Assembly (NCBI GenBank): GCA_951406725.2
Contig: OX597837.1
Span: 38,874,001 to 38,938,000, forward strand
Length of the DNA stretch: 64,000 nucleotides
Direction of reading: 5' to 3'
From: Octopus vulgaris
Taxonomy: Eukaryota
Numbering within the stretch: the stretch's first letter is position 1; each line of letters opens with the position of its first letter. The notes under the pieces were generated by a model that saw only the letters and a list, made by a program, of their open reading frames with translations, was not told the origin of the DNA and did not search any database. The position numbers were made by a program, and so were the translations under genes. Shown here piece by piece: positions 6,401 to 63,503 of the stretch.

Positions 6401-6801
6401 TAACTTTGATTTTCGAGATGGATTAGATAATTGCAAAGATGGTCTGTAAACATAACTTATTTATCTGTACGTTTTCATAAATGCGATCACCCCTACAAAT
6501 AACTGCACACAGTTCTTGGGGGCTTGACAATTATGGCTGAAGTCGGCCACAATTTTATCTTTTGAAATTAAGAAAGATACGTAAAAATAACTTCTTTTGC
6601 ACACACACACACACACACATGTGCGCTCTAGGTAAAACTTCTGTATGTATTATAAAATTACAGCTCAACTTCAATTAAATTGACCTTTTTTTATTTTGTA
6701 ATTCATATTTGTGATGTTTATATTTTCACTCCCCATCCACCACCATCATCATAATATTTATTTTTATTTTCTATTTTTCGATCTTACCAAACTTTGCAAA
6801 G

Positions 6802-7301
6802 ATTCATCCTGACCAGTGAAAAAATGTCAGATCAACCAAAGGAAATTCGAGGCAGTCAACTGACAAAACAGAACCTGCGAAAACCCAAATCTGATCCATT
6901 GCCAAGCATGTCAGGCTGTAAAGTGCCATTTGAGAAAAGCAGTAAGAAATTCCCCAATAAGAATATTTCTCAGTTGGCATCAGTTGTTGATGAATCGACA
7001 GACAGCAATTCTGAAAAGATGATGAGTGAAGAACATAAGAAATTGGTGAAGGACAACTGTGTGGAGTTAGTGCAGAATATGTTCGCGAATGAGGTATTGG
7101 ATCATTTGTTGCAGAAGGATGTATTAACAATGTCTGAAAAGGACCGAATCAAAGCTGAAGGAGCATCTATGAATGAAAAACTCATTGATACAATCATGTG
7201 CAAACCAGATAAGGCTTTCTTTGTGTTTGTAGCTGCCCTGAAGAACACTGGTGAACCTCATTTGGCCGATTTGCTGTCACCTGCAAAAAAGCGAAAACCA
7301 G
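6802..7301 (+). CDS. Gene A linker+CARD exon (phase 2->1)
   Basis: CARD pattern EHKKLVKDNCVELVQNMFANEVLDHLLQKDVLT..E..I..LIDTIMCKPDKAFFVFVAALKNTGEPHLADLL; donor CCAG|GTAATT; phase-2 AG acceptors end at 6801 and 6816. Confidence 0.85.
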
Positions 7302-7371: not shown

Positions 7372-8203
7372 TACCCACTCTCTCGCACGCATGCATGTGA
7401 ATAGGTATGGCTCTGTGGTAAAGAAGTTCATTTTCCAGTCGGATTGTTTCCGGTTCAGTCCTACTGTATGGCACTTTGGACAAGTGTTTTCCAAATTCTT
7501 GTGAGTGTATTTGGTAGAAGGAAACTGCAAATCAACCTGTTGTATATATGTGCCTATATGTATATATACACACAATTTGCTGTCACCTGCAAAGAAGCGA
7601 AAACAAGGTAATTTCTTCACACACATACACCCACCCACTCTCTCGCACACCTGTGAATAGGTAGTTTCTTGTTATTATAAAACCTGCTTAACCATATTAG
7701 GCAGACTTTATAATGACAAGAAATGTTTAGCGGCTCTCAATTTAATATTTTGTACATTAAATAATATTTATCTTCCAGCAAATGGAGGACATTTTTTGTT
7801 GATCGGAACACTAAACTCTGTGTGTGAGTATTATGTATGTATATATGTATATATACACATACACAGACATGAATATATTAGCATATACATATATAAATAC
7901 AAGCAATAAGTTTCTTCTGTGGTTTTCCAAATCCACCCACAAGGCTTTGTTTGGGCCATGGCTATAATAGAAATCACACAGCTAAGGTGTCGCACAGTGG
8001 GACTGAACCTAACATCACATGCTTGGAAAGCAAACTACTTACCACACAGCCACATCTGTAACCATACATACATATATGCATACACACACACCCCTACCTA
8101 CATACATACATACATACATAGGTACTGTAAACTTAGAGTGAATACTTGATAAGTGTAAGCACCTGTATATGCCAGATAGTGGCAGAGGTGAGAGAGAATA
8201 TAT

Positions 8204-9828: not shown

Positions 9829-12437
9829 GTACACGATGCTGCCGTTACCTACCCCAGAAACGCGCGGGCCCACGCAGAGTTGGCACATTGAAAGGTAGGT
9901 CTGGTGAGATTGTTGAAATGCTTGAACTGAGATGTACTGCATCCAACAAATAAGGTGGAAAGGAAGTTCTGCTAGGTTCTTTACAGGCAAAGAATATAGG
10001 TATAAGATTTTCTGGGTAGGGAACACTGACGGGGTTGGGGGCATGGGACTACTTCTTGCGGAGAAAAAATATGGGTTGATAAGGTAATCGAGGTAGTCAG
10101 AGTTTGTCATAAAATACTTAAGCTTAGATTAGTGCTGCAACATAGGTTAGCTACCATTATCTCGGCTTACACCCTCAGCCAGGGCTACCTGATGAACAAA
10201 AGACCGATTTTATGACACCCTCTTGCAGGCTACTGTGTCGGCGAATTAAAGGGACCTTCTTTTTGTGACAGGCAACTTCAATGGGCATAGACAACATGCA
10301 GGGGGCTTCCATGGTGTACACAGTGGATATGGTTCCCACAATGCAAATGATCTTATGGTTTGTAATACACCTATTCATCTACCAGTCTCGAGGTCACACT
10401 AGTCACACTAGTCAAATTGACTACATCCTCACCAGGAAACGGGAAAGACGGCTATTTATAAATGTCAAAACCATCACAGGTGAAGAATGCACATTACAAC
10501 ATAGATTAGTAGCTAGTGACTTCAGGATCAGGGCTAAATCGATGCCCAGAAGACAACCAGCATGGAAAAAAGGGTCTGGAAGCTTAAGGATCCTGTGAAT
10601 AAATAGAGATGTATTACTTAAAGCTTTTGACAAAATAGAGGAGGATATAGCATCATATGATGTGGAAGACAACTGGAGGTTCTTACGGGACAACCTATTG
10701 AGGGCTACTGACAAGATCTGTGAATGGTGCAAAGTTTCCTCTTGACCCAAGGTAACGTAGTGGTGGAACAATGTAGTTGACAGAGCCATTAGGGAAAAGA
10801 AACAGACTTAGGAGGACTGGAAGAACGGTGGTAGTAGGGAATTGTATCAGTTTGCCAGAAGGGAAGCTAGGAGACAGGTTTACTTAGCTAGAGGTGAAGC
10901 AGATAAGAAAAATTTGCCAATTTTCTGTGTTGTGAGGACTAAAGACTTGAAGTGTTTTGTGTTGCAAGACTGTGAGAGAGAATCATGATGTTGTAGGAGA
11001 GAAATGTGTCCGCATGGATGATGGTTCACTTGCATTTAATGAGGCTGCAGAGAGATGTGGAGACGCCACTGTAAAAGGTTGCTAAATGAAGAGAATGAAT
11101 GGGAGAAAGAGAGTCTGCCGAATATCAACCCAAGAGAGGGACTAGCTATCTTAATTGACAGTACCTTGGTAGATAAAGCAATTAAGGGTATGAAGTCGGG
11201 GAAAGTCCCTGGCCCATCAGGAATCACTGTAGAGATGCTTAAAATATTTGGCAGCATTGGCTATAGTCTAGTCACCCATATAGACAATCAGGTGATACAT
11301 GAAGGAGTTATACCCAATGACTGGTGTAGCAGCACCATAGGCAACTGCTATAAAGGTAGGAATAATTGCAGAGGTATGAAGTTGTTGAATCAAGTAATGA
11401 AAGTCATGGAGAGGGTCATAGCCCAACTAATTAGAGAGAGTGTTAGATTAGATAAGACACAGTTTGGGTTTGTGCCAGGGAAAAGCACCACTGATGCTAT
11501 ATTTCTGGTAAGGCATCTGCAGGAGAAATATCTGACCAAAGATAAACCTCTGTACTTGGCTTTTGTTGACTTGGAGAAAGCCTATGACAGGGTCCCCCGA
11601 TCCCTTATCTGGTGGTCAATGCGGAAACTGGAGATAGACGAGTGGTTGGTAAGAGCTGTACAGGGATGCTGTCAGTAAGGTGAGGATTGGCAATGAGTAT
11701 AGTGAAGAATTCCGGCTAGAAGTAAGTGTTCACCAAGGATCTGTCCTCATCCCCCTCTTATTCATCATAGTCCTCCAGGCAATAAGAGAGGACTTCAAGA
11801 CAGGCTGCACATGGGAGCTCTTCTATGCTGATCGCCTTGTCACTGCCAGAACTGGGAGACAGAGTTTAGGGTGTGGAAGCAAGGTCTGGAATTGAAGGGC
11901 TTTAGGGTTAACCTAGCAAAAACCAAAGTTTTAATAAGTAGGAAGGCAGACAAATCACAAACCCCTTCAGGTGGATGGCCCTGCTCGATCTGTAAAAAAG
12001 GCATAGGTAGAAACTCCATATGAAGTGCCTGGTGTAAGCTGTAGACACACAAAAGGTGCAGTAATATCAAAGGAATGTTTACCGGAAAGATAGTTTTTGT
12101 GTATGAGAGATACACAGGAGCAAAAAACACTGAAGATGTACAGAGAACAGATTCCATCACACGACAGGGGGAAAAACTAGAAGTAGTTGATAGCTTTTGG
12201 TACCTATGTAACCAAGTCTGTAGTGGGGGTGGTTGCTTTGAGAGTGTAGCGGCTAGAATAAGAATAGCCTGGGCAAATTTCAGGGAGCTCCTACTTCTAC
12301 TGGCAACTAAGGGGCTGTTACTCAGGATGAAAGGTAGACTGTATGATGCATGTGTGCGAACTGCCATGCTACATGGCAGTGAAACATGGGCCATGACTGC
12401 TGAGGACATGTGTAGGCTTAAAAGAAATGAAGCTAGT
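9829..12437 (+). mobile_element. Decayed RTE-clade LINE (AP endonuclease + RT) in the last intron of gene A
   Basis: Fragments IDYILTRK, QFGFVPGKSTTDAIF, LAFVDLEKAYDRVP, LFYADR, AMLHGSETW, broken by stops and frameshifts. Confidence 0.9.
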
Positions 12438-12929: not shown

Positions 12930-12973
12930 GTCAGAATATTCCATTTTCGAAAGAGAATCTCTACAGACCTTGA
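12930..12973 (+). CDS. Gene A terminal coding exon (phase 1): GQNIPFSKENLYRP*
   Basis: Strong polypyrimidine tract plus ttccAG acceptor in unique sequence; the phase-1 reading continues the CARD exon; the same tract is the last bases of the window for gene B. Confidence 0.65.
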
Positions 12974-13352
12974 GTCCGAAGTGGTCAAGAAGGCCAGACG
13001 ATATCAATTAAGGTCCTCAAAAAAGCTGAGTACTTAATGTGATGGTGACACGGGTGGCAATGCTGGAGCATCGCTATAACAGGGTTTTAATCAAACTAAT
13101 CAAATTTACTCCATTATATTCTTTTATTTGCTTCTGTAATTTAACTGTGGCCATGCTAGAGCACCCCTTTAGTAGAACAAATCAACTCCAGGGCTTATTC
13201 TTTGTAAGCTTAGTATCTCTTCTATCAGTCTCTTTTGCTGGACTGCTAAGTTATAGAAATGTAAACACACCAACATCGGTTGTCGAGTGATGGTGGGAGA
13301 ACAAACACAGACACACAAACATATATATATATATATATACACATATATATAT

Positions 13353-13421
<69 letters not shown>

Positions 13422-13705
13422 CAACAATTGAGGGTAAAATTAATTAATTATTAATCAATTTCACCAAGTGTTCAGTATGCAAAGGGACCATTTAAGGCGA
13501 ATTCAAATTATTACATTATATAAAAGGGCTTAGTAAAATAAATTACTTTGCCGCATACTGAACTCATTAGAAATAGCAGCTAAAAAACTTTTTTAAAGCT
13601 ATTTCTAATACTTAAAGAAAATCTCTCTCATATATAGTGTTTGCTTAATTCAACTCACAAAAGTTTGGGGGTAAGGACATTAAAAAATCAAATGCTAAGG
13701 TTATT

Positions 13706-13757
13706 TGAGAACGTACGTTTCAAGATTAGTCAAAACAACACTTCTATCTTCAGCTCA
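13706..13757 (-). ncRNA. Minimal type I hammerhead ribozyme motif
   Basis: Minus strand: tgag-CTGAAGA-[imperfect stem II]-GAAA-cgtacg-TT-ctca; stem I TGAG/CTCA; palindromic stem III. Confidence 0.6.
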
Positions 13758-14250
13758 GAAACTCCTTGGTTTGGATTTGGAAACACTGAAAGTAAGAACA
13801 TACCCTTTCGAAGATCCGCTCGTAACTAACAGTGCCAACAAACCCAAATAAGCAAATGAAGAATTTCTGTTCTCCCCTTTCCACCAGCGTGGGTTAAAAT
13901 CATCAAACGCTATGCTTATTTCGGTAAAATCCGAAGCATTAATTAGAGGGAGATTAATTATAATTTCAACAATTGAGGGTAAAATTAATTAATTATTAAT
14001 CAATTTCACCAAGTGTTCAGTATGCAAAGGGACCATTTAAGGCGAATTCAAATTATTACATTATATAAAAGGGCTTAGTAAAATAAATTACTTTGCCGCA
14101 TACTGAACTCATTAGAAATAGCAGCTAAAAAACTTTTTTAAAACTATTTCTAATACTTAAAGAAAATCTCTCTCATATATAGTGTTTGCTTAATTCAACT
14201 CACAAAAGTTTGGGGGTAAGGACATTAAAAAATCAAATGCTAAGGTTATT

Positions 14251-14302
14251 TGAGAACGTACGTTTCAAGATTAGTCAAAACAACACTTCTATCTTCAGCT
14301 CA
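14251..14302 (-). ncRNA. Second copy of the minimal type I hammerhead motif
   Basis: Same as 13706-13757, in the second 545-bp unit. Confidence 0.6.
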
Positions 14303-14639
14303 GAAACTCCTTGGTTTGGATTTGGAAACACTGAAAGTAAGAACATACCCTTTCGAAGATCTGCTCGTAACTAACAGTGCCAACAAACCCAAATAAGCAA
14401 GTGAAGAATTTCTGTTCTCCCCTTTCCACCAGCGTGGGTTAAAATCATCAAACGCTATGCTTATTTCGGTAAAATCCGAAGCATTAATTAGAGGGAGATT
14501 AATTATAATTTCAACAATTGAGGGTAAAATTAATTAATTATTAATCAATTTCACCAAGTGTTCAGTATGCAAAGGGACCATTTAAGGCGAATTCAAATTA
14601 TTACATTATATAAAAGGGCTTAGTAATTAGAATTAGCAA

Positions 14640-17215: not shown

Positions 17216-17573
17216 ACAAAAAACTGGTATCGGGTGAGGTGACATGTATTTAAGCATGAGGGTTGAGTACAGGAGTACAGATCACAAGAGGACAATAAAA
17301 GATCAGCTGAAGACCATTCAGAATGTTCAGTGGCATGTAAAGAGTGCCGTTCAAGTGTGGTTGGTGCCAGTGCCGCCTGACTGGCACGTAAAAACTACCC
17401 ACTATACTTTCGGGATGGTTGAAGTTAGGAAGGGCATCCAGCTTTTCAAAAATCGATCCTGTCTGTTAAGAAAAAATCGATGCAGTTCCGATAAAGGACT
17501 GAATCAACGCTTATTGAAAAGATTGCAAAGACGGAACGAAAATTTTTGTAAAAATAAATGAGTGAAAATCAGA

Positions 17574-18653
17574 CCTATTTCTTTATTGCCCACAGGGGGC
17601 TAAACACAGAGAGGACAGACAAGCGGATTAAGTCGATTACATCGACCCCAGTGCGTAACTGGTACTTAATTTATCGACCCCGAAAGGATTAAAGGCAAAG
17701 TCGACCTTGGCGGAATTTGAACTAAAGAACGTAAAGACAGATAAAATACCTATTTCTTTACTACCCAGAGGGGGCAGACAAGAGGATTAAGTCGATTACA
17801 TCGACTCCAGTGCGTAACTGGTACTTAATTTATCGACCCCGAAAGGATTAAAGGCAAAGTCGACCTCGGCGGAATTTGAACTCAGAACGTAAAGACAGAC
17901 GAAATACCTATTTCTTTATTGCCCGCAAGGGGCTAAACACAGAGAGGACAGACAAGCGGATTAAGTCGATTACATCGACCCCAGTGCGTAACTGGTACTT
18001 AATTTATCGATCCCGAAAGGATTAAAGGCAAAGTCGACCTCGGCGGAATTTGAACTCAGAACGTAAAGACAGACGAAATACCTATTTCTTTATTGCCCAC
18101 AAGGGGCTAAACACAGAGAGGACAGACAAGCGGATTAAGTCGATTACATCGACCCCAGTGCGTAACTGGTACTTAATTTATCGATCCCGAAAGGATTAAA
18201 GGCAAAGTCGACCTCGGCGGAATTTGAACTCAGAACGTAAAGACAGACGAAATACCTATTTCTTTATTGCCCACAAGGGGCTAAACACAGAGAGGACAGA
18301 CAAGCGGATTAAGTCGATTACATCGACCCCAGTGCGTAACTGGTACTTAATTTATCGACCCCGAAAGGATTAAAGGCAAAGTCGACCTCGGCGGAATTTG
18401 AACTCAGAACGTAAAGACAGACGAAATACCTATTTCTTTATTGCCCACAAGGGGCTAAACACAGAGAGGACAGACAAGCGGATTAAGTCGATTACATCGA
18501 CCCCAGTTCGTAACTGGTACTTAATTTATCGACCCCGAAAGGATTAAAGGCAAAGTCGACCTCGGCGGAATTTGAACTCAGAACGTAACGGCAGACGAAA
18601 TACGGCTACGTATTTCGCCCGGTGTGCTAACGTTTCTGCCAGCCCCTCGCCGC
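17574..18653 (-). repeat. Tandem array of ~6 SINE family-1 bodies, 174-bp period, with one tRNA head
   Basis: TACCTATTTC recurs at 17905, 18079, 18253 and 18427; the head sequence occurs only at ~18600-18653. Confidence 0.9.
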
Positions 18654-24095: not shown

Positions 24096-24621
24096 ATGGA
24101 ATCTAAGAGAAAGAAAGATCTCTCGCAATCGCAGAAAAACAAGGAATTTTATGTATGTAAAAGTAGAAATGTAACGAGCATTCCTGAGCAAGGGAACTTT
24201 TCAACAGGCATCCATAATGCTTTGCCGAGTACATCAGGCACTTTACAGGTCACCGAGGAACTTCACGATGCGAGCAATTCACAGCTGAGGCCATATGTTG
24301 ATGACTCATCAGATGATGATATAGAGATAATGAGTCCAGAAAACAAGAGGCGCCTGAATGACTGTTCTGTGAAATTGGTGGAAAATATGATTCCTGATGA
24401 AGTGCTCAATTTTTTATTGGCAAAGAAAGTATTAACAAACTATGAGATGGACACAGTTAAAAGTAAGGGAATCCGTATGGCTATGAATGAAATGCTCATT
24501 TCTTTGGTGACCTGCAAGCCAGATAAAGCATTTAGTGTACTTGTAGAGGCCCTGAAGAGATCTGGGCAAAAGCATTTGGCCAAGTTACTGACATCTACCG
24601 AGTATCGAAAACGGAAACCAG
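24096..24621 (+). CDS. Gene B first coding exon: N-terminal linker + CARD1
   Basis: ATG preceded by in-frame stops (24054, 24087) and a cccAG acceptor at 24039; divergent CARD ENKRRLNDCSVKLVENMIPDEVLNFLLAKKVLT..KPDKAFSVLVEALKRSGQKHLAKLL; same KRKP-G|GTAATT phase-1 donor as the other CARD exons. Confidence 0.85.
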
Positions 24622-29807: not shown

Positions 29808-30013
29808 CTACTGAGACAAACACAACTTTATAATGCGCACGTATGTGCCATCAAATTGTCTCACAAACTCTTCATAAGCTTCAGGAGAGTTGTCTTGCCG
29901 TTTGATGCTGCAGAGCCATGACTTCAGTACATTACACATCTCACTTAAGCACTCTTTTCCTTTACTGTCAGAACTGGCTAAGTTCTCAATGTCAACTTGC
30001 ATGCTTATCTCCC
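29808..30013 (-). pseudogene. Antisense exon-like fragment of unknown origin
   Basis: Minus-strand acceptor tttatttttcttgcAG followed by an open 68-codon frame GEISMQVDIENLASSDSKGKECLSEMCNVLKSWL..YEEFVRQFDGTY; no family recognised. Confidence 0.35.
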
Positions 30014-30119
30014 CTGCAAGAAAAATAAACAGGCTGTTTTGGTATTTTTTCTTAGTTTTTTTTTAGTTTTAAAATATTTACTATTAGTTTCCCACCACAA
30101 AATATCAAGAAAATAGACA

Positions 30120-36168: not shown

Positions 36169-36269
36169 TATATATATATATATATATATATCGTGTGTGG
36201 TATGTCATGTTTGCCAGTAAGTCATAAAATGATTTCCAAACATTTTATTTTAGGAGTCACCTATTTCAG

Positions 36270-36336
36270 CTAAGGGGAAAAAAAGGATTACACGTCAAAA
36301 TATCCAACCCAAAGGCAGAAAGACATTGAAGGAAAA
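36270..36336 (+). CDS. Gene B basic linker exon (phase 1->2), AKGKKRITRQNIQPKGRKTLKE
   Basis: tatttcAG acceptor and AA|GTAAGT donor; joins CARD1 (phase 1) to CARD2 (phase 2) in frame. Confidence 0.72.
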
Positions 36337-41754: not shown

Positions 41755-41927
41755 GCGCTCTAGGTAAAACTTCTGTATGTATTATAAAATTACAGCTCAA
41801 CTTCAATTAAATTGGCCTTTTTTTATTTTGTAATTCATATTTGTGATGTTTTTATTTTCACTCCCCATCCACCACCATCATCATAATATTTATTTTTATT
41901 TTCTATTTTTCGATCTTACCAAATTAG

Positions 41928-42442
41928 GAACAGTTTGCAAACATTCATCCTGACCAGTGAAAAAATGTCAGATCAACCAAAGGAAATTCGAGGCAGTCAA
42001 CTGACAAAACAGAACCTGCGAAAACCCAAATCTGATCCATTGCCAAGCATGTCAGGCTGTAAAGTGCCATTTGAGAAAAGCAGTAAGAAATTCCCCAATA
42101 AGAATATTTCTCAGTTGGCATCAGTTGTTGATGAATCGACAGACAGCAATTCTGAAAAGATGATGAGTGAAGAACATAAGAAATTGCTGAAGGACAACCG
42201 TGTGGAGTTAGTGCAGAATATGATCGCGAATGACGTATTGGATCATTTGTTGCAGAAGGATGTATTAACAATGTCTGAAAAGGACCGAATCAAAGCTGAA
42301 GGAGCATCTAAGAATGAAAAACTCATTGATACAATCATGTGCAAACCAGATAAGGCTTTCTTTGTGTTTGTAGATGCCCTGAAGAACACTGGTCAACCTC
42401 ATTTGGCCGATTTGCTGTCACCTGCAAAAAAGCGAAAACCAG
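41928..42442 (+). CDS. Gene B linker + CARD2 exon (phase 2->1)
   Basis: Phase-2 AGs end at 41927 and 41933; CARD EHKKLLKDNRVELVQNMIANDVLDHLLQKDVLT..ALKNTGQPHLADLL; donor CCAG|GTAATT. Confidence 0.87.
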
Positions 42443-42514: not shown

Positions 42515-43381
42515 TACCCACTCTCTCGCACGCATGCATGTGAATAGGTATGGCTCTGTGGTAAAGAAGTTCATTTTCCAGTCGGATTGTTTCCGGTTCA
42601 GTCCTACTGTATGGCACTTTGGACAAGTGTTTTCCAAATTCTTGTGAGTGTATTTGGTAGAAGGAAACTGCAAAACAACCTGTTGTATATATGTGCCTAT
42701 ATGTATATATACACACAATTTGCTGTCACCTGCAAAGAAGCGAAAACAAGGTAATTTCTTCACACACATACACCCACCCACTCTCTCGCACACCTGTGAA
42801 TAGGTAGTTTCTTGTTATTATAAAACCTGCTTAACCATATTAGGCAGACTTTATAATGACAAGAAATGTTTAGCGACTCCCAATTTAATATTTTGTAAAT
42901 TAAATAATATTTATCTTCCAGCAAATGGAGGACATTTTTTGTTGATCTTAACTTAACGGAACACTAAACTCTGTGTGTGTGTGTATGTATATATGTATAT
43001 ATACACATACACAGACATGTATATATTAGCATATACATATATAAATACAAGCAATAAGTTTCTTCTGTGGTTTTCCAAATCCACCCACAAGGCTTTGTTT
43101 GGGCCATGGCTATAATAGAAATCACACAGCTAAGGTGTCGCACAGTGGGACTGAACCTAACATCACATGCTTGGAAAGCGAACTACTTACCACAGAGCCA
43201 CGTCTGTAACCATACATACATATATGCATACACACACACCCCTACCTACCTACATACATACATAGGTACTGTAAACTTAGAGTGAATACATGATAAGTGT
43301 AAGCACCTGTATAAGCTAGATAGTGGCAGAGGTGAGAGAGAATATATCAAATATAGATTAAAAACAGAACACAAAGGATAT

Positions 43382-44498: not shown

Positions 44499-44542
44499 CA
44501 TCCGGTAGAGAAAATGCCAATGCAAAAAGAATGGTGATACAG
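44499..44542 (+). CDS. Gene B 44-nt linker exon (phase 1->0), ASGRENANAKRMVIQ
   Basis: ttttttttctcctcAG acceptor and CAG|GTGAGA donor; bridges CARD2 (phase 1) to the phase-0 CARD3 exon exactly. Confidence 0.75.
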
Positions 44543-47605: not shown

Positions 47606-50600
47606 CATCATCATCATCATCATCATCATTTAACGTCCGCTTTCCATGCTAGCATGGGTTGGACGGTTCAACTGGGGTCTGGGGAGCCCGAAGGCTGCAC
47701 CAGGCCAGTCAGATCTGGCAGTGTTTCTACAGCTGGATGCCCTTCCTAACGCCAACCACTCCGAGAGTGTAGTGGGTGATTTTATGTGCCACCGACACAG
47801 GTGCCAGACGAGGCTGGCGAACGGCCATGCTCGGATGGTGTTTTTATGTGCCACCGACACAGGTGCCAGACGAGGCTGGCGAACGGCCACGCTCGGATGG
47901 TGTTTTTATGTGCCACCGACACAGGTGCCAGACGAGGCTGACGAACGGCCACGATCGGATGGTGTTTCTTACGTGCCCACAGCATGGAGGCCAGTCGATG
48001 CGGTACTGGCTACGGCCATGTTCGGATGGTTTTCTTGTGTGCCACCGGCACTGGTACCACAAAGATACAAATTCCATTGATGTTCATCTATTTTGATTTG
48101 ATTTGATTTGATTTTCACTTGCCTCAACAGGTCTTCACAAGTGTCACAAGAAGGAAGGAAGGTAAGCACAGGTGAACTGACAACGTCCCAGGTAGGGGCC
48201 ACGGGTTATGGCCTGACTAGTCTTGCCGGGTCTTCGGATGATGTTTTTATGTGCCTCCGACACAGGTGCCAGATGGATGGTGTTTGTTACGTGCCCACAG
48301 CACGGAGGCCAGTCGATGCGGTACTGGCTACGGCCACGTTCGGATGGTTTTCTTGTGTGCCACCGGCACTGGTACCACAAAGATACAAATTCCATTGATG
48401 TTCATCTATTTTGATTTGATTTGATTTGATTTGATCACTTGTCTCAACAGGTCTTCACAAGTGTCACAAGAAGGAAGGTATGCACAGGTGGACTGACTAC
48501 GTCCCAGGTAGAGACCACGGGTTATGGCCTGACTAGTCTTGCCGGGTCTGCGGATGGTGTTTTTATGTGCCACCGACACAGGTGCCAGATGAGGCTGGCG
48601 AACGGCCATGATCGGATGGTGTTTGTTATGAGCCCACAGCACAGAGGCCAGTCGATGCGGTACTGGCTACGGCCATGTTCGGATGGTTATCTTGTGTGCC
48701 ACCGGCCCTGGTACCACAAAGATACAAATTCCATTGATGTTGATCTATTTTGATTTGTTTTGATTTGATCACTTGCCTCAACAGGTCTTCACAAGTGTCA
48801 CAAGAAGGAAGGTATGCATAGGCGGACTGACTTCGTCCCAGGTAGGGGCCACGGGTTATGGCCTGACTAGTCTTGCCGGGTCTTCAGATGGTGTTTTTAT
48901 GTGCCACCGACACAGGTGCCAGACGAGGCTGACGAACGGCCACGATCGGATGGTGTTTCTTACGTGCCCACAGCATGGAGGCCAGTCGATGCGGTACTGG
49001 CTACGGCCACGTTCGGATGGTTTTCTTGTGTGCCACCGGCACTGGTACCACAAAGATACAAATTCCATTGATGTTCATCTATTTTGATTTGATTTGATTT
49101 GATTTTCACTTGCCTCAACAGGTCTTCACAAGTGTCACAAGAAGGAAGGAAGGTAAGCACAGGTGAACTGACAACGTCCCAGGTAGGGGCCACGGGTTAT
49201 GGCCTGACTAGTCTTGCCGGGTCTTCGGATGATGTTTTTATGTGCCTCCGACACAGGTGCCAGATGGATGGTGTTTGTTACGTGCCCACAGCACGGAGGC
49301 CAGTCGATGCGGTACTGGCTACGGCCACGTTCGGATGGTTTTCTTGTGTGCCACCGGCACTGGTACCATAAAGATACAAATTCCATTGATGTTCATCTAT
49401 TTTATTTTGATTTTCACTTTCACTTGCCTCAACAGGTCTTCACAAGTGTCACAAGAAGGAAGGTATGCACAGGTGGACTGACTACGTCCCAGGTAGGGGC
49501 CACGGGTTATGGCCTGACTACTCTTGCCGGGTCTTCTCACGCACAGCATACTTCCATAGGTCTCGGTCTCTAGTCATTTCCTTGGTGAGACCTAAAGTTC
49601 GAAGGTCGTGCTTCACCACCTCGTCCCAGGTTTTCCTGGGTCTACCTCTTCCACAGGTTCCCTCAACTGCTAGGGTGTAGCACTTTTGCACACAACTATC
49701 TACAGCCATTCTCGTCACATGACCATACCAGCGCAGCCGTCTCTCTTGCACACCACAATTGACGCTTCTTAGGTTCAACTTTTCTCTCAAGGTACTTACA
49801 CTCTGACGATTATGAACACTGACATTACACATCCATCGGAGCATACTGGCTTCATTTCTTGCAAGCTTACGCATATCCTCAGCAGTCACGGCCCATGTTT
49901 CACTACCATGTAGCATGGCTGTACATACACACGCATCATATAGTCTGCCTTTTACTCTTAGCGAGAGGCCTTTTGTCACCAGCAGGGGTAAGAGCTCTCT
50001 AAACTTTGCCCAAGCTATTCTTACTCTAGCAGTTACACTTTCAGCACACCCACCCCTGCTACTGACTTGGTCTCCTAGGTAGCGGAAGCTATCAACTACT
50101 TCTAGTTTGTCTCCCTGGAACGTGGTAGAAGTTGGTCTCTGCACATTTCCAGTGTTTATTGCTCCTGAGCATCTGCCACAGACAAAAACTATTTTCCTAG
50201 TTAGCCTTCCTTTGACATTGCTGCACCTCTTATGTGTCCATAGCTTACACTTGGTGCACCTTATAGAGTTTCTACCTACACCTTTTTTACAGATCGAGCA
50301 GGGCCATCTACCTGAAGTCGTTTGTGATTGGTCCACCTTCCTACTTATTAGGACTTTGGTTTTGGCTAGGTTGATTCTAAGGCCCTTCGATTCTAATCCT
50401 TGTTTCCACACCTGAAACTTCTCCTCCAGTTCTGATAGTGACTCAGCAATTAGAGCAAGGTCATCAGCATAGAGGAGCTCCCAGGGGCATCCTGTTTGGA
50501 ATTCCTCCGTTATTGCCTGGAGGACTATGATAAATAGGAGGGGACTGAGGACTGAACCTTGGTGGACCCCAACCTCTACCCGGAATTCTTCACTGTACTC

Positions 50601-57494: not shown

Positions 57495-58060
57495 TCTTAC
57501 CAAAGCAGTATCCTGCTTAAAACAGTCACTCCGACCAGCGTGAAAGTGGAGCTGCAGAGTGAAGAAGGAGAGATATACAATGCTGGATCAAAGAATATTC
57601 TAATCGACGAGCCAAGGGAAGATAATCCTTTAATAAGCAAATTTGATCAATTGCCGAGTACATCGGCCTATGTAGAGGCGTCTGGGGAAAGCATTAAGAG
57701 CCTTCCCAATGAAGCTTTTTCTCAGTCGGGATCAGTTGATGAATCGGCAGACAGCGAAGACAGCGATTCTGTGAAGATGATGAGTGAAGTACATAAGAAA
57801 TTTGCTGAAGGACAACCGTGTGGAGTTAGTGCAGAATATGATCCCGAATGACGTATTGGATCATTTGTTGCAGAAGGATGTATTAACAATGTCTGAAAAG
57901 AAACGAATCAAAGCTGAAGGAGCATCTATGAATAAAAAACTCATTGATACAATCATGTGCAAACCAGATAAGGCTTTCTTTGTGTTTGTAGCTGCCCTGA
58001 AGAACACTGGTCAACCTCATTTGGCCGATTTGCTGTCACCTGCAAAAAAGCGAAAACCAG
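57495..58060 (+). CDS. Gene B linker + CARD3 exon (phase 0->1) with a +1 frameshift at 57801-57803
   Basis: ttttttcAG acceptor in frame with ORF 57540; the CARD continues in ORF 57784; TTT replaces the TT of the paralogs; donor CCAG|GTAATT. Confidence 0.8.
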
Positions 58061-60868: not shown

Positions 60869-63503
60869 TCTTTTCAGGTACACGATGCTGCCGTGCCCTA
60901 TCCCAGAAACGCGCGGGCCCACGCAGAGTTGGCACATTGAAAGGTAGCTCTGGTGAGATTGTTGAAATGCTTGAACTGAGATGTGTAGGTTTGTGCTGCA
61001 TCCAACAAATAAGGTGGAAAGGAAGTTCTGCTAGGTTCCTTACAGGCAAAGAATATAGGTATAAGATTTTCTGGGTAGGGAACACTGACGGGGTTGGGGG
61101 CATGGGACTACTTGCGGAGAAAAAATATGGGTTGATAAGGTAATCGAGGTAGTCAGAGTTTGTCATAAAATACTTAAGCTTAGAGTAGTGCTGCAACATA
61201 GGTTAGCTACCATTATCTCAGCTTACACCCCTCAGCCAGGGCTACCTGATGAACAAAAGACCGATTTTATGACACCCTCTTGCAGGCTACCTTGTCGGCG
61301 AATGACAGGGACCTTCTTTTTGTGACGGGCAACTTCAATGGGCATAGACAACATGCATGGGGCTTCCATGGTGTACATGGTGGCTATGGTTTTGGTTCCC
61401 ACAATGCAAATGATCTTATGGTTTGTAATACACCTATTCATCTACCAGTTTCGAGGTCACACTAGTAACACTGACTACATCCTCACCAGGAAACGGGAAA
61501 GACGGCTATTTATAAATGTCAAAAACATCACAGGTGAAGAATGCACATTACAACATAGATTAGTAGCTAGCGACTTCAGGATCAGGGCTAAATCGATGCC
61601 CAGAAGACAACCAGCATGGAAAAAAAGGGTCTGGAAGCTTAAGGATCCTGTGAATAAATAGAGATGTATTACTTAAAGCTTTTGACAAAATAGAGGAGGA
61701 TATAGCATCATATGATGTGGAAGACAACTGGAGGTTCTTACGGGACAACCTATTGAGGGCTACTGACAAGATCTGTGAATGGTGCAAAGTTTCCTCTTGA
61801 CCCAAGGTAACGTAGTGGTGGAACAATGTAGTTGACAGAGCCATTAGGGAAAAGAAACAGACTTAGGAGGACTGGAAGAACGGTGGTAGTAGGGAATTGT
61901 ATCAGTTTGCCAGAAGGGAAGCTAGGAGACGGGTTTACTTAGCTAGAGGTGAAGCAGATAAGAAAAATTTGCCAATTTTCTGTGTTGTGAGGACTAAAGA
62001 CTTGAAGTGTTTTGTGTTGCAAGACTGTGAGAGAGAATCATGATGTTGTAGGAGAGAAATGTGTCCGCATGGATGATGGTTCACTTGCATTTAATGAGGC
62101 TGCAGAGAGATGTGGAGACGCCACTGTAAAAGGTTGCTAAATGAAGAGAATGAATGGGAGAAAGAGAGTCTGCCGAATATCAACCCAAGAGAGGGACTAG
62201 CTATCTTAATTGACAGTACCTTGGTAGATAAAGCAATTAAGGGTATGAAGTCAGGGAAAGTCCCTGGCCCATCAGGAATCACTGTAGAGATGCTTAAAAT
62301 ATTTGGCAGCATTGGCTATAGTCTAGTCACCCATATAGACAATCAGGTGATACATGAAGGAGTTATACCCAATGACTGGTGTAGCAGCACCATAGGCAAC
62401 TGCTATAAAGGTAGGAATAATTGCAGAGGTATGAAGTTGTTGAATCAAGTAATGAAAGTCATGGAGAGGGTCATAGCCCAACTAATTAGAGAGAGTGTTA
62501 GATTAGATAAGACACAGTTTGGGTTTGTGCCAGGGAAAAGCACCACTGATGCTATATTTCTGGTAAGGCATCTGCAGGAGAAATATCTGACCAAAGATAA
62601 ACCTCTGTACTTGGCTTTTGTTGACTTGGAGAAAGCCTATGACAGGGTCCCCCGATCCCTTATCTGGTGGTCAATGCGGAAACTGGAGATAGGTGAGTGG
62701 TTGGTGAGAGCTGTACAAGTCCTGTACAGGGATGCTCTCAGTAAGGTGAGGGTTGGCAATGAGTATAGTGAAGAATTCCGGCTAGAAGTAAGTGTTCACC
62801 AAGGATCTGTCCTCATCCCCCTCTTATTCATCATAGTCCTCCAGGCAATAAGAGAGGACTTCAAGACAGGCTGCACATGGGAGCTCCTCTATGCTGATCG
62901 CCTTGTCACTGCCAGAACTGGGAGACAGAGTTTAGGGTGTGGAAGCAAGGTCTGGAATTGAAGGGCTTTAGGGTTAACCTAGCAAAAACCAAAGTTTTAA
63001 TAAGTAGGAAGGCAGACAAATCACAAACCCCTTCAGGTGGATGGCCCTGCTCGATCTGTAAAAAAGGCATAGGTAGAAACTCCATATGAAGTGCCTGGTG
63101 TAAGCTGTAGACACACAAAAGGTGCAGTAATATCAAAGGAATGTTTACCGGGAAGATAGTTTTTGTGTATGAGAGATACACAGGAGCAAAAAACACTGAA
63201 GATGTACAGAGAACAGATTCCATCACACGACAGGGGGAAAAACTAGAAGTAGTTGATAGCTTTTGGTACCTATGTAACCAAGTCTGTAGTGGGGGTGGTT
63301 GCTTTGAGAGTGTAGCGGCTAGAATAAGAATAGCCTGGGCAAATTTCAGGGAGCTCCTACTTCTACTGGCAACTAAGGGGCTGTTACTCAGGATGAAAGG
63401 TAGACTGTATGATGCATGTGTGCGAACTGCCATGCTACATGGCAGTGAAACATGGGCCATGACTGCTGAGGACATGTGTAGGCTTAAAAGAAATGAAGCT
63501 AGT
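60869..63503 (+). mobile_element. Decayed RTE LINE, paralog of 9829-12437
   Basis: ORFs 62110-62961 and 63141-63641 match those at 11055-11895 and 12075-12575. Confidence 0.9.

Follow-up and report, generated by a model that had tools for sequence, protein, structure and literature searches.

Four young CARD/TRADD-N gene copies of Octopus vulgaris with an excess of replacement changes across most of the protein

The window, a stretch of 64,000 nucleotides of the Octopus vulgaris genome located at G000:C24:38874001-38938000, carries exons of two genes of a four-gene tandem family with the architecture CARD-[TRADD-N]-linker-(CARD)1-3. Our analysis suggests that these four young copies encode enzyme-free CARD/TRADD-N proteins and that positive selection acting on the entire protein is driving them apart, with a conflict with pathogens as the probable cause, a reading to which we assign a probability of about 0.65. 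Besides the gene structure and splicing described below, replacement changes exceed silent and intronic changes about 3-4-fold, the core of the CARD is almost unchanged, and the copies exchange sequence as mosaics. Positive selection on the copies is highly likely and, once it is granted, a pathogen is its probable driver. The signal is real and well controlled, broader than that proposed by an earlier, sequence-only reading and not centred on the CARD, and it lies in a known but uncharacterised family.

Public protein models were mapped onto 264 kb to obtain the four gene models, and 11 CARD exons were located in about 210 kb, seven of A type (86-100% identical) and four of B type (52-53%). 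The A-type CARDs are 52% identical to the first CARD of their own gene, which is of B type. In genes 1 and 3, the B-CARD is followed by a TRADD-N exon, two small linker exons and an A-CARD. Gene 2 has two A-type CARDs and gene 4 has three, giving three to four CARDs in all when the B-type is counted, and in both genes the TRADD-N exon is reduced to an inverted, decayed piece. The CARDs, which the sequence-only reading had taken as separate genes, are in fact modules of multi-CARD genes. Exon 3 is absent from gene 2; as the first exon has phase 1 and exon 4 phase 0, the first exon cannot join exon 4 in frame. No catalytic domain was found in Pfam scans of the gene models. The features within the window are as follows.

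1003-1085, + strand: gene 1 exon 4, an 83-nt basic linker exon (12 replacement and 0 silent changes among 4 copies).
6802-7301, + strand: gene 1 A-type exon with linker (6802-7018), CARD (7019-7300) and basic tail (Pfam CARD E=5.5e-16).
9829-9894, + strand: gene 1 short exon after the last CARD (junction from 7301 to this exon type in run X8).
12930-13045, + strand: final coding exon of gene 1, whose end is approximate (copies differ by small indels).
24096-24621, + strand: gene 2 first exon, encoding a basic N-terminus, a linker and a CARD of B type that shares 52% identity with A-type (Pfam CARD E=9.8e-17).
29814-30014, - strand: inverted, decayed TRADD-N exon fragment; the intact TRADD-N exon is missing from gene 2.
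36254-36336, + strand: gene 2 copy of exon 4.
41928-42442, + strand: gene 2 A-type exon with CARD2 at 42160-42441 (Pfam CARD E=8.5e-20; acceptor type used in X2, X4 and X7).
44499-44542, + strand: gene 2 44-nt spacer exon between CARD repeats (3/3 copies identical; junction from 7301 in X2, X4, X7 and X8).
57495-58060, + strand: gene 2 A'-type exon with CARD3 at 57777-58059 (in the assembly, an additional T at 57801-57803 disrupts the frame).
60878-60943, + strand: gene 2 short exon downstream of its last CARD, with an approximate end.

The reading frame of the window's first CARD starts at 7019, and the domain matches P0004, a protein named Octopus vulgaris, at 100%. In the model of P0004 the CARD has a pLDDT of 84-96, the linkers fall below 50 and the TRADD-N region contains beta-sheet; the linker at 6802-7018 is accordingly predicted with low confidence and is likely disordered. 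No public run was recorded as RNA; four that were guessed to be RNA gave spliced contigs. In these contigs, which come from four studies, the A exon is entered through either acceptor and left at 7301, the copy of origin not being assignable, and exon 4 type is joined to the CARD exon in contigs of the same kind (loose ends 6793/6796). A 9-nt deletion (window 6793-6802 vs 41920-41928) takes out the acceptor that serves genes 2 and 4, and splicing in genes 1 and 3 relies on another, in-frame acceptor close by; both junction types occur in contigs of the guessed-RNA runs. About 300 nt into the intron, at window 7576-7612 and also at 42719 and 58365, there is a short duplicate of the 3' end of the CARD exon that bears a donor-like site. 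The last CARD exon of gene 3 (L005, G000:C24:38982760-38983485) is a fusion of both linker types before one CARD, and its junction recurs in contigs X4 and X8 (guessed RNA) and in the O. sinensis isoform X9. Tandem arrays occupy 13414-14626, 17573-18603 and 47893-49536 of the window, with units of about 545, 174 and 330-650 nt, and their copy number differs between the duplicated genes.

Public runs also bear on the reality of the variants. Alternative CARD alleles were found at codons 5, 8, 10, 23, 51, 53, 72, 80 and 84 and a new allele at codon 48, and four minority or split CARD alleles (V10, K53, Q63 and D72) were found in O. sinensis. The residues private to 7019-7300 (C14, F22, E25 and E79) were not clearly seen in any of eight runs, whose contigs drop rare variants. 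In the assembly, three exons are disrupted by single-base indels within homopolymer runs. At window 7284, an extra A in the basic-tail run is seen in contigs of X2 and X8 (guessed RNA) and copy g4A has one fewer; slippage here that changes the C-terminus is possible.

The sequence-only reading rested on the absence of silent differences between young CARD pairs. The CARD at 7019-7300 and CARD2 indeed differ at exactly seven codons (V/L, C/R, F/I, E/D, M/K, A/D and E/Q) with no silent change, the linker ahead of them being identical, and CARD2 and CARD3 differ at six codons and seven bases (E/V, A/P, D/K, K/M, E/K and D/A), again with none silent. The extra T in CARD3, which that reading did not notice, shifts the frame after eight codons, and the public model P0004 ends in this shifted frame. 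As standalone evidence of selection the pair of 7019-7300 and CARD2 was rejected as within chance: seven replacements out of seven have a P of 0.10-0.21, among 282-nt non-coding windows from the same duplicated block 11% contain at least seven differences, and coding mismatches between genes 1 and 2 are not above those under shifted masks (P=0.32).

The replacement excess becomes far stronger over all copies, once a further four A-type CARDs and four exons of B type, together with the linkers and small exons, enter the data. Variable sites were counted without a tree, and multi-hit codons were resolved towards silent changes. The pooled count excluded the first two CARD codons, codon 89 (a gap), eight codons of the B-exon indel zone, the spacer exon, which does not vary, and the final two exons, whose frame is uncertain. 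This count gave 88 replacement to 9 silent changes, distributed as 26:3 in the A-CARD (7 copies), 14:1 in linker type 1 (4 copies), 15:1 in linker type 2 (3 copies), 12:3 in the B N-terminus (4 copies), 5:1 in the B-CARD (4 copies), 3:0 in TRADD-N (2 copies), 12:0 in the 83-nt exon 4 (4 copies) and 1:0 in exon 3. The neutral baseline of flanking introns that had been called for earlier was taken from the mutation spectrum of 27,045 local intron sites, including the CpG effect; it predicts 28.4 silent changes where 9 were observed, and 0 of 200,000 simulations reached nine or fewer. A flat mutation spectrum still gives P=0.001, and P remains below 0.01 when any one of the four genes is left out. 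In the parts outside the A-CARD, which the sequence-only reading did not use, the ratio is 53:6 (P 0.002-0.02, with two of the four exon 4 copies counted).

A single-ratio codon maximum likelihood model was used in place of the PAML M7/M8 comparison, site models being confounded by gene conversion. The overall omega is about 3.5-3.65 (3.65 with a likelihood ratio test P=1.4e-5; IQ-TREE P=3.8e-5). Across five gene pairs, silent divergence is 0.4-2.1%, non-coding divergence 0.6-1.3% and replacement divergence 1.7-4.6%; pairs with gene 1 show 1.7-3.8% replacement against 0.6-1.1% non-coding divergence, and the other two pairs 4.0-4.6% against 1.0-1.3%. As silent divergence is of the same order as non-coding divergence and replacement divergence is higher, replacements are raised rather than silent sites suppressed. 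Within the CARD, replacement sites (26/206) differ from the intron (24/720) with P=2e-6 and silent sites (3/67) do not (P=0.49). As a control, 10 transposon ORFs carried in the same duplications and run through the same code gave 68:38 and an omega of 0.71, arguing against a pipeline bias. A mutation-bias artefact of GC or CpG was also rejected, since GC at codon positions 1 and 2 is close to that at position 3 and the measured spectrum raises the silent expectation.

Several results count against this reading. Taken by itself the A-CARD is weak: the four A-CARDs outside the window (18:3) stand at P=5e-4 against their intron but are not significant against silent sites (P 0.13-0.36), and 0-fold versus 4-fold sites of the A-CARD give P=0.31. 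The coding excess of the youngest duplicated block reaches only P=0.076. The B-type CARD is slow-changing. Omega is below 1 for the older splits, at 0.41 between CARD types A and B and about 0.7 between the linker types.

All four window copies that were scanned match the Pfam CARD (PF00619) at 58.8-71 bits against a cut-off of 23.9, and the CARD model shows the six helices of the death fold; Foldseek matches it to the Apaf-1 CARD with an rmsd of 0.7 and a TM by target of 0.93. A model of the CARD built from its single sequence had no Foldseek match at E<=0.001, and no TRADD-N structure was among the matches listed for the full model. The TRADD-N exon of O. vulgaris alone stays under the PF20694 cut-off (15.2 bits, E=0.019), but it is 70% identical to P0013, the O. 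bimaculoides orthologue, which passes (30.5 bits vs 23.7), and its nearest clusters are TRADD-like_N (0.93). Proteins in which TRADD-like_N comes after a CARD are present in Bulinus, the limpet Patella and Capitella; an alignment over this region was also obtained with a Physella protein. Pfam lends no support to the names 'kinesin-related protein 4-like' and 'type III domain-containing 3B' given in databases. P0013 bears the locus name LOC106877111 and is 69% identical over the CARD-TRADD-N region; this locus is catalogued as CARD+TRADDN-DEDD2+CARD in Fig. 4 source data 1 of Kaur et al. 2021 (PMC8195603), a source available in part, and so the family has already been catalogued. Our DEDD2-clade assignment is taken from the row for this orthologue in that supplement.

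Because a conserved basic motif follows the CARD, the main rival to a pathogen is a conflict in the nucleus or germ line, over reproduction or transposons, in which selection is equally real and acts on a nuclear DEDD2-like protein. The motif is shared by octopus and most of the relatives from snails and limpets; the N-terminus is likewise basic. Protein-wide acceleration that includes linkers is typical of reproductive genes, which counts in the same direction. DEDD2, the vertebrate member of the clade, is moreover described as nucleolar in the available part of PMC8195603. However, the same part of that paper reads the death-fold/TRADD-N expansions of marine invertebrates as anti-invader systems, and the spliced contigs come from guessed-RNA runs of four studies, whose tissues are not given. 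We consider this rival unlikely.

A second explanation is that constraint has been relaxed in young, redundant copies, with pseudogenes among them, and that chance together with patches converted from older paralogues accounts for the shortage of silent changes. It draws on the frameshifts in three exons, the loss of TRADD-N in two genes, gene 2 being out of frame, the chance-level pair of the sequence-only reading and the mosaic nature of the copies; the four-gamete test is failed by 93 of 190 informative site pairs, implying that copies exchange sequence. Relaxation predicts an omega of up to 1, however, whereas 2.3-5 was observed against 0.71 in the neutral transposon control. The excess does not depend on broken gene 2 (78:8 without it) or on copy g1A (74:8 without it), the CARD core is spared, and patches from older paralogues would bring many silent differences (dS 0.57-0.75) that are absent here. 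Some linker differences may nevertheless have been copied in from an older paralogous linker. Relaxed constraint is thus disfavoured, and we regard it as improbable.

Comparison of the CARDs with the linkers gives no support for CARD-specific selection, and the replacement excess spans most of the protein. The concentration of changes in the CARD noted earlier holds for the original pair (P=0.019) but not for the family: in matched copies, the share of replacement sites that vary is 30/414 (7.3%) in the CARDs and 29/364 (8.0%) in the linkers (P=0.79). Diversifying selection, which the sequence-only reading had proposed, is supported with all copies, whereas its targeting to the CARD is not, as the linkers have an equal or higher omega: about 4-4.5 with P about 1e-4, compared with 2.3 and P about 0.09-0.096 for the A-CARD, on which IQ-TREE agrees.

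Within the CARD, the hydrophobicity of each alignment column across 55 relatives served as a proxy for burial. Variable residues occupy 1 of 21 hydrophobic core positions and 20 of 64 elsewhere (P=0.01), and thus avoid the core; no clustering of variable residues in one part of the sequence was seen (P=0.35). The suggested bias towards changes of charge was supported, with 16 of 24 changes altering charge against an expected fraction of 0.40 (P about 0.008; 0.035 among non-core sites), and the net charge of the CARD spans -4 to +3 among copies. The spared core together with these surface and charge changes indicates that the CARD fold is kept while its surface alters. CARD positions that have diverged from O. 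bimaculoides show overlap with the variable ones (8/15, P=0.01), and five minority alleles equal the O. bimaculoides residue, implying that some of the variation is old or recurrent and not all of it new and independent. A narrower explanation, with selection confined to CARD interface residues for partner specificity and the linkers as passengers, would account for the surface and charge bias and for the overlap with O. bimaculoides differences, but it is very improbable given the linkers alone (41:5, P 0.002-0.024, with two of the four exon 4 copies counted), their omega of about 4, the lack of clustering within the CARD, and a CARD that is the best conserved part across species (78-82% identity to O. 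bimaculoides, vs 70% for TRADD-N and 52-70% for the linkers).

Among known systems, the DEDD2-clade TRADD-N + CARD proteins in the available part of PMC8195603 are orthologous, and their architecture matches genes 1 and 3, in which TRADD-N follows an N-terminal death-fold domain. Genes 2 and 4 retain only the inverted, decayed fragment of this domain and are derived, TRADD-N-less members of the family. Motile cephalopods have very few TRADD-N proteins according to that source, whose supplement holds one such locus among its O. bimaculoides rows, compared with four genes and 11 CARDs in O. vulgaris. Two of the O. vulgaris genes have lost TRADD-N, and no effector domain occurs in any of the four. 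The available part of PMC8195603 contained no selection test on the DEDD2-clade octopus gene, and literature searches found no paper on this locus or its selection; they likewise turned up no published account of the expansion of the cluster, of its selection signal or of the two copies that lack TRADD-N.

The primate CASP1/CARD16-17-18 locus, as described in the available part of PMC11630849, likewise has CARD genes duplicated in tandem and CARD proteins that are enzyme-free, along with gene loss, pseudogenisation and recurrent conversion between genes. However, the primate CARD-only proteins are single CARDs copied from a neighbouring caspase, whereas the octopus CARDs were copied from the gene's own first CARD and number two to four per protein. 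Membership in the CARD16/17/18 type was rejected, as each model has 2-4 CARDs and the best caspase CARD among 20 loci fetched from the genome is 32% identical. A predicted complex between CARD2 and the caspase L050 CARD reached a score of 0.01, which argues neither for nor against their pairing. The CARD8/NLRP1 tripwire sensors (available part of PMC10249858) are also CARD proteins with the strongest positive selection in a disordered region, and the octopus linkers are both disordered by prediction (pLDDT <50) and positively selected (omega about 4). No FIIND domain was found in Pfam scans of any of the four models, so the known CARD8/NLRP1 release mechanism is absent; with FIIND missing and several CARDs per protein, membership in this sensor type was rejected. 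Both systems may thus be viewed as functional analogues to which the octopus family does not belong. In the red/green opsins (available part of PMC3924837), introns are likewise more similar than exons in converting duplicates. The opsin differences peak around two fixed sites, whereas the octopus changes run across most exons and many are private to one copy.

In our preferred reading of whole-protein selection, probably by pathogens, the proteins would likely act as death-fold signalling adaptors or decoys. Their CARDs could nucleate or block CARD-CARD assemblies, and charge changes on the CARD surface might retune partners or allow escape from an antagonist. The fast linkers may be contact or cleavage sites for pathogen proteins, and the TRADD-N-less copies may serve as competing decoys. 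Gene conversion would homogenise introns and silent sites, and selection would fix or protect amino acid differences. A more speculative and rather doubtful extension is a FIIND-independent tripwire, in which pathogen proteases or antagonists would engage the disordered linkers, CARDs would be released or exposed and a death signal nucleated, the TRADD-N-less paralogues would be tunable decoys, and exon shuffling and gene conversion would generate the repertoire.

Other CARD clusters were observed in the octopus genome. One (G000:C14:75541259-75629820, L032-L037) contains at least six CARD genes with pairwise omega about 1.4-2.0, uncorrected, and four of them carry a second helical domain after the CARD that is Death-like by eye. 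Another (G000:C26:30946494-30983183, L038-L042) holds five single-exon genes with a CARD followed by internal repeats that vary in number, one ORF reaching 1840 aa, and pairwise omega about 1.2-2.8, uncorrected. A third (G000:C26:33728296-33814135, L043-L046) consists of tandem CARD-caspase-like genes; two copies stop alike after 216 aa, and the catalytic motif looks altered by eye in L043 and L044. For a caspase pair, omega was 0.7. Since two of these clusters appear alike to the family studied here (omega 1.2-2.8, uncorrected), the pattern may be general.

The intracellular immunity of cephalopods is poorly charted. Here, a recent expansion with an omega near 3-4 over the whole protein and a built-in neutral control is found in animals supposed to be poor in TRADD-N proteins, and its variable surface and linker residues provide a short list with which an opposing pathogen factor may be sought.
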